The notes under the pieces were generated by a model that had not been told where the DNA came from, did not search any database, and saw nothing but the letters and a program-made list of their open reading frames with translations. Made by a program: the position numbers and the translations under genes. A DNA stretch of 21,051 bases from a virus (Duplodnaviria; Heunggongvirae; Uroviricota; Caudoviricetes): the IMG/VR virus record IMGVR_UViG_2579779002_000005; one strand, given 5' to 3'. Shown here piece by piece: positions 2,720 through 14,439 of the stretch; the stretch's first letter is position 1, and the number at the start of each line of letters is the position of its first letter.

Positions 2720-4576
2720 TTATGATGATGCTGGTGCATTTATCTCCAGCACCAGACTTTCTATCTCAACGCCATACGCTGCATTTTTGGTAATATCCGT
2801 CAGCGTCAGCGCATTCAGCCCCAGTGTCAGACTGTCTTTTATGACCTGGAATGCCGGGCCAGCCACTCCATTCAGTTTCGGAGTAACCGTGGCACTGCCG
2901 GCGGTGAACACCAGCTCCAGCGTCTGCCAGTCGTTACTGTAATTCCCGAACTCGCCCAACTTTGTGTTTCCTGCTTTCCTGTGATGCATCAGATTCAGTT
3001 TGCCGTCTGTGGTCTGGGTGAAGAACGACATCAGGAACGGGTTACCAGTCCCGGTCATCGCCACGACGTCAGGTAACGCTACATCGGTATACAGATAAAT
3101 TCCCAGACCGAACTGGTTGTTGGTCAGTGCGCCTGACAGTCGAAACTTACAGCTCAGTCTGCCACCCCGTGTCAGCAGGGAGACTGCGTCATCCACCGGA
3201 TGCATCAGGGACCAGGTTTTATTGCTCTGCTTGGTAACCTTAAACACACCATCTTCCAGCGCAACACTGCCGCCGGTGATGGTCCAGCCCTGCGCAGCAG
3301 CCTCTCCGGCTGTCGGCAGCAGGGAGACTGTACGAACGGATGTGTCACCATCAGACGGCCCCGATGGCGTGTCGCCGCCGGGCGAGGGTTTAATCTCCGG
3401 TGCGGTACCGCTGATGAAGGCGCTGGTTCGACCAACTGCGTTCAGAATAGCGGTTGCCAGGCGATCCGAAATAATGCCCCTGCGCGCCCATGAACTGAAA
3501 TGTGTCGGACGATTTGACGATACCCAATTACCATTACTACGGGATTGCGCGCCGTAATAACCTGCATCAGCAATATCCGGGTCTTCTGCCGGTAAGTTGG
3601 TGGGCGTGTTGTTGCCGTTACCGTCGGTCATGAACGGCACAAAGAAAACGTTGTCGCTCTCCCTGTTTTTGTACGCGCCGTAGACGGAGTCATACTGTGT
3701 GCCGTATGTGTTTTTCCAGTAATACGTCGTGTCGCCACAAATCCACGGTACAACTGCAGCACTGCCGCCATGGCACTGCGCCGCCAGCCCGGCAAGGTCA
3801 GCACGGAACTGCTGTACCATTGCAAGAAATGCTGCTGGCTGCTGGGCGTAACTGGCATTCGTCATATCGAATTCCCCCTGCATCCAGCATATCGCCAGCA
3901 AAACGTTTTTCGGGTTTTTCTGCAATGCTGCCTTCGTGCGGAAAAGCAGATCCTGATATAATGGTTTACCCACACCCCAGCGTGCCGAATCCTGGCTGGC
4001 CCCCGTGTCCGCACTGAATGTCCCCTCCGCGCCCTGGGTGAATGCCGAACCACCACGACAGCATGGTACCAGCAGGATCCCCGCATTATTAGGGATATAC
4101 GGAAGCAGTTTTTTGGCAATATGTAAGCCCTGTCCGACACAGCCGTACTGCCCTTTGCTCAGGTCAGCCCGGGGATGGTTAATCGTACTCATATCCTGAA
4201 CATCATGCAGACAATGGTCAGCAGGAATGATGTCGTTAAATACGCATACTTCACCACCGGGAGTCACTGTGTTACGACGGGCCAGTTGCTTAATGCGCGG
4301 ATGGGGCGCATCGTATGAATCCGGAAGCGGAAGCCCTTCACCGTAAGCCATGGCATTGGACTGCCCGGCCAGTACGATGACGTAGTACCACTCCGGCTCA
4401 GTTGCACCACTGACGACCACATCACCTTCTGCTGCAATCGCCTGCATCAGGGTATAAGGGGTTATGGCCACCGGACTACCAAACGGCTGCCAGCCCTCTT
4501 TCAGTTTATGTGTCAGCTTTTCCGCAAGATCTGACGGCGACGCCGCCCTGACAACATCATAGTGTTTAAATGCCAT
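2720..4576 (-). CDS. nanS-p: Prophage sialate O-acetylesterase (NanS-p-like, SGNH/SASA esterase domain)
   Basis: 618 aa with a GQSN nucleophile block (VIVLAGQSNAMAYGEG). Located between the tRNA cluster and the holin, as in Stx-type lambdoid phages. Confidence 0.75.
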   Translation of the reverse strand: MAFKHYDVVRAASPSDLAEKLTHKLKEGWQPFGSPVAITPYTLMQAIAAEGDVVVSGATEPEWYYVIVLAGQSNAMAYGEGLPLPDSYDAPHPRIKQLARRNTVTPGGEVCVFNDIIPADHCLHDVQDMSTINHPRADLSKGQYGCVGQGLHIAKKLLPYIPNNAGILLVPCCRGGSAFTQGAEGTFSADTGASQDSARWGVGKPLYQDLLFRTKAALQKNPKNVLLAICWMQGEFDMTNASYAQQPAAFLAMVQQFRADLAGLAAQCHGGSAAVVPWICGDTTYYWKNTYGTQYDSVYGAYKNRESDNVFFVPFMTDGNGNNTPTNLPAEDPDIADAGYYGAQSRSNGNWVSSNRPTHFSSWARRGIISDRLATAILNAVGRTSAFISGTAPEIKPSPGGDTPSGPSDGDTSVRTVSLLPTAGEAAAQGWTITGGSVALEDGVFKVTKQSNKTWSLMHPVDDAVSLLTRGGRLSCKFRLSGALTNNQFGLGIYLYTDVALPDVVAMTGTGNPFLMSFFTQTTDGKLNLMHHRKAGNTKLGEFGNYSNDWQTLELVFTAGSATVTPKLNGVAGPAFQVIKDSLTLGLNALTLTDITKNAAYGVEIESLVLEINAPASS

Positions 4577-5551: not shown

Positions 5552-5628
5552 TGGCGCGTTGTACTGGATTCGAACCAGTGACCGATTGCTTAGAAGGCAA
5601 TTGCTCTGTCCGGCTGAGCTAACAACGC
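5552..5628 (-). tRNA. tRNA-Arg (anticodon UCU)
   Basis: Minus-strand sequence folds as a cloverleaf: acceptor GCGTTGT/ACAACGC, D stem GCTC/GAGC, anticodon stem ATTGC/GCAAT with loop CTTCTAA, T arm ACTGG-TTCGAAT-CCAGT, encoded CCA. Confidence 0.85.
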
Positions 5629-5641
5629 AGGATACAGATAA

Positions 5642-5718
5642 TGGACCGCCTTCGGGGACCCGAACTCCGCGCAACCAGCTTCGAAGGCTGGCGCTCTTTC
5701 CTGATGAGCTAATGGCGG
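5642..5718 (-). tRNA. tRNA-Arg (anticodon UCG), slightly degenerate
   Basis: Cloverleaf with anticodon stem CCAGC/GCTGG and loop CTTCGAA. It has one acceptor mismatch (A6-A67), one T-stem mismatch and T-loop TTCGGGT (G at position 58). The anticodon loop is palindromic, so strand is assigned from the neighbouring tRNAs. Confidence 0.6.
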
Positions 5719-5725
5719 TATGTGA

Positions 5726-5801
5726 TGGTGGCCCTTGCTGGATTTGAACCAGCGACCTGGCGATTATGAGTCGCTCGCTCTCACCACTGAGCTAAAGGGC
5801 C
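5726..5801 (-). tRNA. tRNA-Ile2-like (anticodon CAU, ileX/ileZ-like; could be read as Met)
   Basis: Perfect acceptor GGCCCTT/AAGGGCC, D arm GCTC-AGTGGTGA-GAGC, anticodon loop CTCATAA, T arm GCTGG-TTCAAAT-CCAGC, CCA end. Closely resembles E. coli ileX as I recall it. Confidence 0.85.
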
Positions 5802-5850: not shown

Positions 5851-6900
5851 TCAAACGATTAAATCCTGAACTTCCCTGACTGTCTGCTCAAAACGTCCGG
5901 TCTCCAGCTCAACACCAATCGCACGACGCCCCAGTGCCATCGCCGCTTTTACCGTTGAACCCGACCCCATGAAAAAATCCGCAACCAGATCACCAGGACG
6001 GCTACTTGCGCTGATTATCTGCTGCAGCATTTCTGCCGGTTTTTCGCACGGATGTTTCCCGGGATAGAACTGCACCGGTTTATGCGTCCACACATCGGTA
6101 TACGGCACCTGCACCGTCACGCCAAAATACCGCCGCAGATGTTTATATTCACTCAGCAGCTCCGCATACTGCCGGTTCAGTGAGGTATACGTATCCACCA
6201 GCTGGTGGTGGAGCTTTTCCAGTTCACCACGCCGATGCTTCTCTTCTGCCACCCGGGCAAACAGCGCCTGTAATTTCAGATAATCGCTTTCATTCGGTAG
6301 CTGCCACTGACTGGCACTGAACCAGTGCGACACCATGTTTTTCTTTCCTGTGGCATCTGCAATCTGTTTTGCCGTTATCCCCAAGGCCGCGCGCGCATCA
6401 CGAAAGTAAGAAATCAGCGGGGCCATCACATGCTGTTTCAGTGCACTGCCCTTCGCCGCATACCCGGCATCTTTCGGACGATACGGCCCCTGATAATGTT
6501 CCGCGAACAGAATGCGCTCTGTGGCGGGGAAATACGCCCGCAGGCTTTCCTTGTTGCACCCGTTCCAGCGTCCGGACGGCTTCGCCCAGATAATATGGTT
6601 CAGCACACTGAAGCGTTCACGCATCATGATTTCGATATCAGATGCCAGGCGATGACCACAGAACAGGTAAAGACTTCCGGCAGGTTTCAGCACCCGCCAG
6701 AACTGCGCCAGACACTGGTCCAGCCATTTCAGGTAATCATCGTCGCCCTTCCACTGGTTATCCCAGCCCTCAGGCTTCACTTTAAAGTACGGCGGGTCCG
6801 TGACTATCAGGTCAACAGAATTTTCGGGTAACGACCGGATAAATTCCAGGCAGTCGGCGTTGATTAACTCACAACTGGATATTTTTACAGTATTAAGCAT
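5851..6900 (-). CDS. DNA N6-adenine (amino) methyltransferase, no cognate restriction enzyme evident
   Basis: 349 aa with the catalytic DPPY motif near the N-terminus (LIVTDPPYF) and an AdoMet-binding FFMGSGST motif near the C-terminus. No nuclease gene is adjacent. Confidence 0.85.
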   Translation of the reverse strand: MLNTVKISSCELINADCLEFIRSLPENSVDLIVTDPPYFKVKPEGWDNQWKGDDDYLKWLDQCLAQFWRVLKPAGSLYLFCGHRLASDIEIMMRERFSVLNHIIWAKPSGRWNGCNKESLRAYFPATERILFAEHYQGPYRPKDAGYAAKGSALKQHVMAPLISYFRDARAALGITAKQIADATGKKNMVSHWFSASQWQLPNESDYLKLQALFARVAEEKHRRGELEKLHHQLVDTYTSLNRQYAELLSEYKHLRRYFGVTVQVPYTDVWTHKPVQFYPGKHPCEKPAEMLQQIISASSRPGDLVADFFMGSGSTVKAAMALGRRAIGVELETGRFEQTVREVQDLIV

Positions 6901-10012: not shown

Positions 10013-10279
10013 CTGTTTTCTCTGCTGGCGCAGCAGGTGCCAGTTGTTCAGGCTGACGTATGAAGTATAAATAAACTGGCTCCAGTGTAAAGCCCCACCT
10101 TAATGGAATAAAAACCAAACAACAGATTGCTGGGATAAAAATACAACGCTTATTATTAAAAGCGGTTAGATAAATTAAATTTTAATGTTATGCAAATCTG
10201 CCAGATTAGCATAATATTTCATTTGAAAACCGCTGAAATAACAATCTTATCGGGATTAATCATATTAAGGTGAGTAAAT

Positions 10280-10366
10280 ATGGAAAACAACAAATCTGCA
10301 CATTACGCTCCTTTTTTATCTGTAATACTTTTTGTATTTTGTTGTGTATGGGCGGTATTTTTATAA
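10280..10366 (+). CDS. 28-aa small hydrophobic peptide (MENNKSAHYAPFLSVILFVFCCVWAVFL)
   Basis: AAGGTGAG Shine-Dalgarno 8 nt upstream of the ATG; a single predicted transmembrane helix; followed by the 10384..10410 hairpin. Below the 60-aa cutoff of the ORF track. Convergent with the protease gene. Confidence 0.3.
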   Translation: MENNKSAHYAPFLSVILFVFCCVWAVFL

Positions 10367-10383
10367 AACACACCCACAAATAA

Positions 10384-10410
10384 ATCAAACCCGCTACAGC
10401 GGGTTTGATT
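10384..10410 (-). terminator. Rho-independent terminator ending the ATPase-protease operon (shared hairpin with the convergent small ORF)
   Basis: Minus strand aaacccgc tgta gcgggttt followed by GATTTATTTGT, 11 bp after the protease stop. Confidence 0.6.
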
Positions 10411-10420
10411 TATATAGTTG

Positions 10421-12685
10421 TTATACGGAAACTGGCACACGAGCAGGCAATGGATAGTGAGCCCAGTTATTAGCATTTAAAGCTCTTACGCCATCAGCAT
10501 AAACTTGTGTTTTTCCATCTAATGATTTTAAAGTTACTACAATAGTTACAGGTAAAGGCTCCATTAAGGCCGGTTCATTCGCTCTCAACGTTGTTTTAGC
10601 TTGAAGAGCCCAGTTACCCGAAGTAATTCCTTTATTAAATGCCTTGCGATGAATTTTTACTGGTGACCACTTTCCACCATGCTCAATTTGAGCTCTCTCA
10701 TATCCAGATTGACCGTTTTCTCCTTCCATAGGTACTTTTCCTTTTATAGTATTATTCTCAATTAAGCCAAAACTTAGCTCTACGTTCGCGCGAACATATT
10801 CACTGCCGGCATTAGGGTTCAGTGGTGGTGCATATGCAGCAGTAATTACAATCTCACCTTTAAATTTTCCATTTTGAATAAGTGCCGATGGTATGGGATA
10901 GTTTTCCTTTCTCCACCTCACCCCAGGAACCAAGAATGTTTGGAAAATCAGAGTAAACCTATCATCACTATCATATAAGGTCTCAATAACCTCATTAGGA
11001 ATTCCCGCTCCCAAATAGCGTCTTTCACTTGGCGAGTAATCAGGAGAAGATAATTGAGCGGAATGAATTAATAATGCTTTAATCAATGATGGTGAAACAT
11101 TAAAGTCTGAATTAGTGGCTATTCTCTGCCATGTATGCGCAGCTAAACTTGCCACAATTGGAGCAGCAAAACTAGTACCAAAATTAGAGCAAAGCCTATT
11201 ATCTGGCCCTACGACCTTTAAACTGCTTGCTCCTACATTCCAAGGTCTATGAACCCCACCGCCAGCATGGATTATATCTGGCTTTGGAGTAAATACAGGC
11301 CCAGGGCCACGACGAGTATATGGTGTCGGTGTTCCAATTTCACTTAAAGCATCATTAGCTTCCATATGAGAAACTGAACCAACTGTTAGTGCTCGGACTG
11401 ACTCTCCAGGAGAGGAAATTAAATCAGCACCTCCAAGCGGATCAGGATTTGGCCATGTACGTATAGGTTCATCTACATAATTACCTGCAGCAACTACAAA
11501 CAAAATACCAAATTTATCGCTGAGCCGATCTAACTCCATCGCAAAATCACTAAACATCTGCTCATTACATGGTCCGCCTCCCAAAGATAAATTCCAGACT
11601 TTTATATCTGGTCTTTTATTTACAGCATCTGCTAGCCTCAGAATTAAATCTGATATATAAGATCCATTTTCATCTAAAGCACAAACATCATGGATTTTAG
11701 ATTTTGTATCAGGAATCCATGGATGATTGTCATTTAAAAAATGAGCGCCTGATATCAATGAAGACACCATAGTCCCATGTTCATAACTCGTATCAGGAGG
11801 AATTACGTATGTTTCCCTACTCACTACCCAAGGAGTAATTGTTGCCGCGATGGGGCTTACCCCAGTGTCAAATACAGCAACAATGGGTAATTCTTCTGAT
11901 GGTACGGGAAAGCTATTTGTTTCAATGCCAACAGAATCACTTACACTAACCGGGAATGCTGAATATTTTGGTTCTGGAATTAACGTTCTTATACCCGGGT
12001 AATCAATGAGAATGTCTAATATATATCTATCATTTGGGGATAAATCCATTATCCTTAATAAGGGAAGACCACATTTTGGTCTAATCTCATCATATTTAAC
12101 TCCGTGTTGTTCTAATATAGAAATAACGTTTTCATAGTTGTTGTAAGTTGCATCTTCACCTGTGTACTCAAATAGTCGTACAAGGATGTTTGATGATTCA
12201 AACAAACCATCAGTGCCTCCTGGAACCTTCCTATTCTCATCCCAAGGTTCAATGCGCTCAATCGCGCTTAGATTAGCCAAAATCGCTTTAATATTCCGAT
12301 GTAAAATGACTGACTCTAATACGTCAAAACAGCCGGCATGAGCAGCAACCAACATTTCATCTATTTTGGCATGACCGGCATTTTGCAATCCAGCCTCTTG
12401 AGCAATTTTGTTCGGCCTATGCGTTTTGGCTATTCCCTGGTCTCTTAATTTGAAAACCAAAGTACCCAAGCTTCCAGGGTACTCTGAAAGTTTGGATTCT
12501 AAATAATGTTTACTGGTTGTTAAATTTCTTACTAGCCCTTGTCTATATTCGGCTGTTACATCAACCAATACCTTTGCCCCACCGCCAGCGTTTACTATTG
12601 CACCCAAGTCACTACTGGAAAAAGGGATTCTTAACATTGGGTTTGTAACTTTTGCGTTACTAAACTGTGTACCCCTTCTGCTCAT
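10421..12685 (-). CDS. Subtilisin-like serine protease (peptidase S8) with large N- and C-terminal extensions; probably cytoplasmic
   Basis: 754 aa. Catalytic residues in D-H-S order: VAVFD273TG, YEH303GT, oxyanion AAGN402Y, GTS505FAAP. No N-terminal signal peptide is apparent. The ORF overlaps the upstream ATPase gene by 26 bp. Confidence 0.85.
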   Translation of the reverse strand: MSRRGTQFSNAKVTNPMLRIPFSSSDLGAIVNAGGGAKVLVDVTAEYRQGLVRNLTTSKHYLESKLSEYPGSLGTLVFKLRDQGIAKTHRPNKIAQEAGLQNAGHAKIDEMLVAAHAGCFDVLESVILHRNIKAILANLSAIERIEPWDENRKVPGGTDGLFESSNILVRLFEYTGEDATYNNYENVISILEQHGVKYDEIRPKCGLPLLRIMDLSPNDRYILDILIDYPGIRTLIPEPKYSAFPVSVSDSVGIETNSFPVPSEELPIVAVFDTGVSPIAATITPWVVSRETYVIPPDTSYEHGTMVSSLISGAHFLNDNHPWIPDTKSKIHDVCALDENGSYISDLILRLADAVNKRPDIKVWNLSLGGGPCNEQMFSDFAMELDRLSDKFGILFVVAAGNYVDEPIRTWPNPDPLGGADLISSPGESVRALTVGSVSHMEANDALSEIGTPTPYTRRGPGPVFTPKPDIIHAGGGVHRPWNVGASSLKVVGPDNRLCSNFGTSFAAPIVASLAAHTWQRIATNSDFNVSPSLIKALLIHSAQLSSPDYSPSERRYLGAGIPNEVIETLYDSDDRFTLIFQTFLVPGVRWRKENYPIPSALIQNGKFKGEIVITAAYAPPLNPNAGSEYVRANVELSFGLIENNTIKGKVPMEGENGQSGYERAQIEHGGKWSPVKIHRKAFNKGITSGNWALQAKTTLRANEPALMEPLPVTIVVTLKSLDGKTQVYADGVRALNANNWAHYPLPARVPVSV

Positions 12686-13814
12686 ATGCTCCTGACTCCT
12701 TCAGAATGTTTGAAATTACTCTTGATGTAAGTTTGTACAAATTAGCAAGAACTCTGATAGAAAATAATTTTTTATCTTTAGAACGTAACCAACGAATTTC
12801 ATCTTCGTAAGTGCTTAAATTTACACCTTCCATAAGCGATTGCGCAAGATACAAACGCCTATACAATTTATGGTGATTTATCACACTTGCACCTTCAATA
12901 ACTGCATCCCTACGTGCATCCAAGCTCACCTGTTCAATTATTGCTCCGGATAATCCCTCCGATTTTCTTGATAAATCACTTAAATCTAGATCGCTACATA
13001 TCATATTCTTTAAACGATTTTTCCAAATTAACTCTCTCTGATGTATGTCAGGCAGAGGCATTGGAATTCTGAAGCTAAATCGCCTCCAGATTGCAGGATC
13101 CAGAAGTTGCTCATGGTTAGTTGAGGCAATAATTACCGTATCCTCTGATGCCGCATCCATATTCTGCAATAGTGAAATGACAACTCGCTGAAGCTCACCT
13201 ATATCTCTCTCATTACCTCTTGCTCCAGCTAAAGCATCAAATTCGTCTAAAAAAAGCACTGATGGCCTCTGCATTACATAATCGAAAACCTGTCTAAGAT
13301 TTTTGCTGGTTTGTCCCAATAAACTACTAATCAAAGTATCGCAACGCACTGTAAGAAGTGGAAAATCTAAGCGGGTAGCGATGTACTTAGATAACATAGT
13401 CTTACCTGTTCCTGGCTTTCCATACACGAGCATACGACTCGGCAATGCTGCATCAGCTTTAACAAACTCATCATAACGTTGAACATTAGTGATAAACTCT
13501 TCAACACGGGTACTGATTGCTGCAGGCAGAAAAATCTCTGAACTGTCTAATTTAGGATAACTGACATCAACAGTGTTGAGTCGACTATCAATATCTACCG
13601 GTAATGAGCCCAGAGATATCCCACCTCCAGCCCTTTGAGCTCCTGCCAACGCCTGGGGAGCTCTAAGCAACCTTTCTCTTATCATTCTGGCTTGCTTGAC
13701 CTCCCCTTTTTGTTCGAGCTTATCTGCCAGCAACCCAGCATAATTACTAGCCATCGAAGCATTTGCCTTTGTTGCACCTTCAATGATTTTTAACACTTCT
13801 GATAAATAATCCAT
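12660..13814 (-). CDS. AAA+ ATPase (classical AAA clade)
   Basis: 384 aa. Walker A GKPGTGKT (K138), Walker B VLFLDEFD, sensor-1 IIASTNH, arginine-finger region DPAIWRRF. GGGAG ribosome-binding site upstream of the ATG. Confidence 0.85.
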   Translation of the reverse strand: MDYLSEVLKIIEGATKANASMASNYAGLLADKLEQKGEVKQARMIRERLLRAPQALAGAQRAGGGISLGSLPVDIDSRLNTVDVSYPKLDSSEIFLPAAISTRVEEFITNVQRYDEFVKADAALPSRMLVYGKPGTGKTMLSKYIATRLDFPLLTVRCDTLISSLLGQTSKNLRQVFDYVMQRPSVLFLDEFDALAGARGNERDIGELQRVVISLLQNMDAASEDTVIIASTNHEQLLDPAIWRRFSFRIPMPLPDIHQRELIWKNRLKNMICSDLDLSDLSRKSEGLSGAIIEQVSLDARRDAVIEGASVINHHKLYRRLYLAQSLMEGVNLSTYEDEIRWLRSKDKKLFSIRVLANLYKLTSRVISNILKESGAYEQKGYTV

Positions 13815-14007
13815 TCAACACTCCCACAACAAAAAGCCACAGCAATCAAAAAATGAGCACACAGAATCAAAATACTCTCTAATCGTAACGCATTTTGAGA
13901 TTTTTGATACGTTTTTTTGGGATTATGTAACGCCAAATGGTCATTTTGTGTCAGAAAAATAAATCTTAGTACCGAGAATATGTAGCTTCCATCCTTCATC
14001 GTTCTAT

Positions 14008-14439
14008 TCATCCCTGATCTCCAAGCCTCTCTCGAAAACCATTCTGATAAAACGCCAGCACACGCTGCATAACTTCGCTCTTCCGGCACTCGCGACAGAT
14101 TATGTTCAGACGCCTGTCGTAGCGGCGTATTTCTCCGTCTGGTAATGACCAGATAAGGTCCGGATCAACCACAGATGGTTTCTTCACCTTTGCCCTGGAT
14201 AGTTTTTTGCGGGCATTTTGCCAGTCCTTACGAGCCTGTTCAGACGGGAATAACCCGTAACCAGAGTTGTATACATCGCCACTGGCAACCAGCTCTCTGG
14301 CGAGAACGCTCATCAGATATCTTGTCGCACCTGTCTTGGCTTCCAGTTGCCGTAACGTCTCGCGCCCACTCCGGCGTACTAGCTCAACAACCTGCCCTTT
14401 AATTTTTTCCCGCTCTTCTTGTGTAAATACTTTTGCCAT
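14008..14439 (-). CDS. Hypothetical phage protein with putative HTH (about 143 aa)
   Basis: Start chosen at MAKVF, which has a GGAGG Shine-Dalgarno 5-6 nt upstream. Contains TLRQLEAKTGATRYLMSVLAREL and a CRECRK motif. No family recognised. Confidence 0.5.
   Translation of the reverse strand: MAKVFTQEEREKIKGQVVELVRRSGRETLRQLEAKTGATRYLMSVLARELVASGDVYNSGYGLFPSEQARKDWQNARKKLSRAKVKKPSVVDPDLIWSLPDGEIRRYDRRLNIICRECRKSEVMQRVLAFYQNGFRERLGDQG

Follow-up and report, generated by a model that had tools for sequence, protein, structure and literature searches.

A prophage-borne copy of the IetA-IetS system and the predicted domain architecture of its subtilisin-family protease

The open reading frame (ORF) at positions 10421..12685 of IMG/VR virus record IMGVR_UViG_2579779002_000005, a stretch of 21,051 nucleotides from a virus of the Caudoviricetes (hereafter the window), encodes the protease of a known system of two genes, IetA-IetS (IetAS); this protease, IetS (spelled IteS by NCBI), belongs to the subtilisin family. 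We give this reading a probability of about 0.9, which covers the identity and the architecture of the protein and excludes its mechanism. The ORF lies on the minus strand, starts with ATG, is preceded by AAGGAG/AGGAG and encodes 754 amino acids. The plus-strand reading of the same interval was rejected because its translation was rich in stops. An earlier note, made by a model from the DNA letters and a list of ORFs, had described at this position an S8 protease with terminal regions that matched nothing it recognised, partnered with an ATPase in phage defence. The ORF proved real, although the note had left its strand unstated.

Identity of the locus

IetS matched the PADLOC IetS model PDLC02197 over residues 12-753 (E=6.3e-300) and the NCBIfam equivalog NF042956 (IteS_antiphage) over residues 15-752 with 1039.4 bits, the cut-off being 900. 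The gene ietA is located immediately upstream of ietS in the same orientation, its 3' end overlapping the start of ietS by 26 nt. Its product matched PADLOC IetA (E=8.9e-143) and NCBIfam NF042959 (IteA_antiphage) with 526.6 bits, above the cut-off of 510. The partnership with an ATPase and the assignment of the pair to phage defence were thereby borne out. IetS was found to be 100% identical to WP_032183377.1, and the RefSeq cluster with 100% identity, comprising 1093 member sequences, is named "S8 family anti-phage peptidase IteS". The 4.1-kb locus was present with 100% identity in E. coli 102651, where RefSeq labels iteA/iteS inside a prophage, and at least 80% of it was present in 78 of 5426 complete E. 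coli genomes. We concluded that the IetAS locus is already known and already named by automated annotation, and that the end domains are a hallmark of the family and not new. The terminal regions that the earlier note could not recognise indeed lack a Pfam assignment, but they are covered by the curated model NF042956.

According to PMC8562856 and PMC13069673, which cite the original work, IetA-IetS became known initially as a toxin-antitoxin pair of Agrobacterium pTiC58 (Yamamoto et al. 2009), and its anti-phage role was described by Gao et al. 2020. In its later description the pair works against phages through abortive infection. The locus in the window has the two-gene operon of known IetAS systems, with the AAA ATPase gene first and the S8 protease gene second; no difference in kind was found and the locus is a member of the family. 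The IetA and IetS modules are also common to ietHAS (Liu-DS4; PMC13069673), which differs by its added SNF2-type helicase, whereas no helicase gene adjoins the present locus, its neighbours being prophage replication and nin-region genes.

Domain architecture of IetS

The architecture was derived from an AlphaFold2 (AF2) model of full-length IetS that was built from a 69-sequence alignment and had a predicted local distance difference test score (pLDDT) of 86 and a predicted template modelling score (pTM) of 0.89. The genes and the predicted parts of IetS are located as follows.

10421..12685, minus strand: ietS (RefSeq iteS), 754-aa cytoplasmic S8 subtilase, toxin/effector of IetAS
12660..13814, minus strand: ietA (iteA), 384-aa single-module classic-clade AAA ATPase, antitoxin partner
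12644..12685, minus strand: N-terminal tail of IetS, residues 1-14, basic, length-variable and predicted to be disordered
12236..12643, minus strand: N1, residues ~15-150, predicted ferredoxin-like alpha/beta domain
11960..12193, minus strand: N2, residues ~165-242, predicted beta-alpha-beta-beta-alpha-beta domain that immediately precedes the core and varies more than any other domain
11891..11959, minus strand: linker, residues 243-265, poorly conserved, indel-rich and of low confidence
11006..11890, minus strand: S8 catalytic core, residues ~266-560 in the AF2 model
11867-11869, minus strand: catalytic D273, VFDTG context
11777-11779, minus strand: H303, HGT context
11480-11482, minus strand: oxyanion N402, AAGN context
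11171-11173, minus strand: S505, GTSFAAP context
10451..10972, minus strand: predicted C-terminal beta-sandwich (C-domain), residues ~572-745, at least as conserved as the core

In the search of IetS against Pfam only Peptidase_S8 was recognised, at residues 268-544 (E=5.6e-26). The core had earlier been placed at 265-530, which is close to the Pfam match, but those borders fell slightly early, as the modelled core extends to ~560 and the C-domain begins at ~572. D273, H303, N402 and S505 lie in canonical DTG, HGT, GN and GTSxAxP motifs and are invariant across the 69 homologues; as read from the sequence the catalytic triad is intact.

The N-terminus of IetS is basic and polar, with four K/R and zero D/E in residues 1-20, and within the first 60 residues the top 10-residue Kyte-Doolittle mean was 1.15. 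Over the whole protein the top 19-residue hydropathy window was 1.48, no window reached 1.6, and the top one corresponded to the buried strand with the catalytic Asp. By simple hydropathy and motif heuristics no signal peptide was apparent and no Tat motif, lipobox or transmembrane (TM) segment was detected, so that by this heuristic test IetS carries neither the Sec/Tat signal nor the membrane anchor of a typical secreted subtilase. These results, together with the known cytoplasmic toxin behaviour of the family, support a cytoplasmic location of IetS, in agreement with the earlier note.

At the N-terminus, residues 1-7 were modelled with pLDDT below 50, and the tail has a 13-column insertion site after residue 4 and a mean conservation of 0.40. 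N1, assigned from the AF2 secondary structure with pLDDT ~90, contains a conserved NPxxxIPFxxxDL segment and the motif AK(S/T)HRP; N15, P16, D26, A86, K87, R90, P91, G104, E110 and W148 are invariant. Residues 11-30, which hold the NPxxxIPFxxxDL segment, had pLDDT 85-89 in the full-length model versus 51-56 in the fragment. As they are confident in the full-length model only, they probably dock on another part of IetS, either the core or the C-domain.

The modelled fold of N2 resembles the I9 pro-domain of subtilases. Compared with known I9 pro-domains and inhibitors (POIA1, 1v5i_B; PCSK9, 2w2m_P and 2p4e_P; Aspergillus Alp1, 8gko_A) there are differences, since these have no sequence match to N2, the fold of N2 is generic with ACT domains scoring equally well, and no conserved cleavage site follows N2. 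The linker between N2 and the core had pLDDT 62-70, falling below 50 at residues 247-250, a conservation of 0.28 and most of the alignment insertions, which makes it the stretch of IetS with the lowest conservation and the most indels. When residues 1-155, 156-265 and 560-754 were scanned singly against Pfam, nothing meaningful was found at E<=10. When the PDB was searched by sequence with a profile of the N-terminus, only a designed protein and noise came up, and no member of the IetS family was found in the PDB by sequence. In the literature searched we found no published account of the folds of the IetS terminal domains.

The C-domain was modelled with 8-9 strands (residues 576-720) and two helices at pLDDT mostly 83-95, in line with the beta-rich C-terminus suggested before, and many of its charged or aromatic residues are invariant. 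In structural alignments of the IetS model with known subtilases, mature-only enzymes aligned over 231-247 residues and larger core-only matches over at most ~290. The P-domain carriers furin and Aeromonas ASP aligned over 285-288 residues, that is, over the core alone, and no Pfam P-domain (PF01483) was found in IetS, on which grounds a kexin/furin-type proprotein convertase was rejected. Chains that retain a pro-domain aligned over 304-332 residues (pro-subtilisin E 317/355, EpiP 325, CylA 306, CspC 332), while KP-43 aligned over 366/434 and ProN-Tk-SP over 371, these being aligned lengths only, with no sequence similarity outside the core. As the crystal structure of KP-43 lacks a pro-domain, its extra aligned residues are attributed to the C-terminal beta-barrel; those of pro-subtilisin E, which lacks a C-domain, are attributed to the pro-domain. 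From these differences in aligned length, and not from coordinates, we infer that N2 would lie roughly at the position of the pro-domain and the IetS C-domain roughly at that of the C-domains of KP-43 and Tk-SP.

Two secreted enzymes may be compared directly with this layout. Tk-SP of Thermococcus kodakarensis (3afg, ProN-Tk-SP) consists of an N-propeptide, a subtilisin domain and a C-terminal beta-jelly-roll; it is secreted and autoprocesses its own propeptide. IetS differs by the extra N1, the lack of a signal peptide, the AAA ATPase partner and a sequence similarity that is undetectable outside the core. KP-43, the alkaline protease of Bacillus sp. (1wmd), consists of an S8 domain and a C-terminal beta-barrel; unlike IetS it is a secreted detergent-type protease with no partner ATPase, and its sequence similarity is limited to part of the core, IetS residues 413-543.

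Mean identity to IetS among the homologues was 53% in N1, 33% in N2, 62% in the core and 64% in the C-domain. A profile of the N-terminal module, searched against 1.84 billion representative proteins, gave 293 matches only, all at the protein N-terminus. The full-length proteins among them were 722-787 aa long, and each of the 10 of intermediate length had, at the same offset, an S8 domain in truncated form. Because every one of the 293 matches sits at the N-terminus of an IetS-sized protein or a truncated S8 protein, the module is, on the sequences searched, specific to IetS-type proteins. Distant homologues on plasmids aligned from ~255 to ~736, corresponding to the core and the C-domain, and an S8 protein encoded beside an ATP-binding protein on Agrobacterium pRiO132 aligned by hhalign with 99.8% probability over columns 68-744, the N1 motif included. 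The three-part architecture is thus, judging by the alignments, a trait of the family and not peculiar to this copy.

Proposed control of IetS by IetA

IetA matched Pfam AAA with E=2.6e-30. Its Walker A motif (GKPGTGKT, from residue 132) and Walker B motif (LFLDEFD, at 187) are intact by sequence, and its closest solved relatives are p97/Cdc48 D2 modules (E=1e-53), with PAN and FtsH also close. Pore-loop 1 (residues 163-168, ~13311-13328, minus strand) reads S-L-L-G, aligned to KLAG of p97 D1 and MWFG of p97 D2, and is without the aromatic residue that is typical of strongly translocating AAA modules. From this, IetA may remodel or hold its target rather than thread it.

Published work assigns the role of toxin to IetS and that of antitoxin to IetA; defence needs the protease activity, and ietA mutants were not constructible (PMC13069673). 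AAA-ATPase/subtilase pairs of Mycoplasma are functional toxin-antitoxin systems (PMC8562856). The ietAS of B. cereus acts by abortive infection and is toxic upon expression of SPbeta yosG, which may trigger it directly or indirectly (bioRxiv 10.1101/2022.08.27.505566). For IetS as a whole we tentatively favour latency, a view to which we give somewhat less than even odds. IetS would be produced as a latent cytoplasmic enzyme whose active site is held in check by N2, a retained part resembling a pro-domain, and a hexameric IetA would keep it harmless in an ATP-dependent manner. On infection a phage product would disturb this restraint, and the freed IetS would cleave cytoplasmic proteins, so that the cell is killed or arrested before new phages have matured. 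The gene order, with ietA leading and overlapping ietS by 26 nt, is in keeping with an operon in which the antitoxin comes first.

Several observations weigh against what is proposed here. Inhibitor_I9 (PF05922) was unmatched both by IetS (E<=10) and by all of the 31 N-terminal homologues (0/31), and in a Foldseek search of the N-terminal model against the PDB no match was obtained at E<=0.001; beyond its fold class the modelled N-terminal module thus has no specific structural homologue. On whether the N-terminal extension corresponds to an ordinary pro-domain, for which the earlier note had called for a check, the sequence was therefore negative while the modelled fold of N2 was pro-domain-like. 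No autoprocessing site could be named, the linker between N2 and the core being unconserved and of low confidence. How IetAS acts against phages is described as still unexplained (PMC13069673). We also found no paper in which this ietAS allele was tested against phages.

In the earlier note it was suggested that the extensions hold the protease inactive until the ATPase acts, that is, an unfoldase-type IetA would pull the pro-domain-like segment away during infection. N2 adjoins the core, the basic disordered tail of IetS could be a handle, and IetA is of the classic clade and near to the substrate-remodelling machines Cdc48/p97, PAN and FtsH; in the study of Gao and colleagues, moreover, defence is said to have required both genes. 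The genetics in three settings nevertheless make the ATPase the antitoxin, with loss or mutation of IetA toxic or unobtainable (PMC13069673, PMC8562856), which is the opposite of the phenotype expected for a pure activator, and a switching-on of the protease by the ATPase is contrary to these results. The pore loop, lacking an aromatic residue and aligned with that of p97 D1, also speaks against it, and we consider such an activation improbable. The same similarity of IetA to the AAA modules of PAN, Cdc48 and FtsH could suggest a two-component AAA+ protease (cf. FtsH, Lon and the proteasome) in which IetA unfolds substrates for IetS and the extensions serve as the docking interface. The overlapping genes are probably co-translated, and residues 11-30, if docked on another part of IetS, could add to the interface. 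Subtilase active sites, on the other hand, are open and not self-compartmentalising, and the toxicity of IetS without IetA, as in toxin-antitoxin behaviour, implies that the protease acts alone; the chance of such a machine appears low indeed.

A sensing function had also been put forward for the extensions. The IetS-specific tandem ferredoxin-like (ACT-like) N1-N2 or the conserved C-domain would then be the direct binding site for a small molecule or a protein of the phage and would gate the protease allosterically, with IetA only resetting or buffering the response. While a sensing role of the terminal extensions is possible, we regard this as a doubtful account of the whole. An ordinary subtilase that is secreted, has a pro-peptide and a C-terminal domain for anchoring or stabilisation, and plays no part in defence would also show a pro-domain-like N2 and a C-domain like those of KP-43 and Tk-SP, as both occur in secreted subtilases too. 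This reading was rejected and is scarcely credible, because features of secretion were absent by the heuristics described above and the protein has a full-length curated match to anti-phage IetS, with an IetA partner, on a prophage cargo island. Latency of IetS under the control of IetA is the mechanism that we tentatively retain.

The ietAS cassette in its prophage

The locus sits in an E. coli lambdoid prophage (annotated context NZ_CP189662.1), in which integrase, excisionase, dicB, the repressor region, an O-like gene, ydaV, DUF1627 and DUF977 are followed by iteA-iteS, and these by DUF968, RusA, Q, a DNA methyltransferase, three tRNAs and lysis genes. Two further features were delimited around the operon.

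10013..14000, strand not assigned: low-GC cargo cassette, ~35-45% GC versus ~50-56% in the flanks, between the replication module and the nin/Q region
10380..10413, minus strand: intrinsic terminator hairpin 8 nt past the ietS stop, with a perfect 15-bp stem, a 4-nt loop and a T-rich tail

The temperate phage vB_EcoS-683R6, which has been sequenced, carries the same cassette in the same slot with 99.6% identity and a different nin region downstream, and ietAS has been reported as prophage-borne in E. coli (bioRxiv 10.1101/2022.08.21.504612). The low GC content, the shared slot and the reported location fit ietAS being horizontally acquired mobile cargo (a "moron") of a lambdoid prophage. In a simple scan no sigma-70-like promoter was detected directly upstream of ietA; transcription may come from the early-right transcript of the prophage or from a promoter missed by such a scan. 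A 99-aa ORF with a GTG start (13790-14089, minus strand) overlaps both ietA, at its 5' end, and the last part of the DUF977 gene. RefSeq leaves it unannotated, while in phage ON470595.1 a shorter portion bears the label 'kinase (fragment)'. On the other side, an AT-rich spacer of 400 nt (10013-10420, ~35% GC) separates the ietS terminator from the next prophage gene. It contained no credible ORF and gave no Rfam match, for which reason a third component or an RNA element was rejected there; the spacer is probably what remains of the edge of the cassette that was inserted.

Further along the prophage, a 349-aa DNA methyltransferase (5851-6900, minus strand) matched a Type II methyltransferase model over its full length (E=5e-166) with no adjacent restriction gene, and on this basis it is probably an orphan methylase of the anti-restriction type. 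Between it and the late region lies a cluster of three tRNA genes (5552-5801, minus strand) for Arg-TCT, Arg-TCG and a tRNA with a CAT anticodon, which is Met by ARAGORN and Ile by RefSeq; the latter would imply a lysidine-modified anticodon. Lambdoid and Stx-type phages typically have such clusters downstream of Q. A 618-aa ORF (2720-4576, minus strand), annotated as DUF6645 only and located between the tRNA cluster and the holin, was matched by no PADLOC model; in lambdoid phages this slot often carries cargo such as toxins.

The locus itself adds nothing new, being a textbook example of a defence system that is already catalogued. It does show that IetAS moves with lambdoid prophages as low-GC cargo, in the slot between replication and nin. 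The fold-level map of IetS, with a ferredoxin-like N1, a pro-domain-like N2, the S8 core and a C-terminal beta-sandwich, is a small but useful addition that is based on prediction and can guide the design of constructs.

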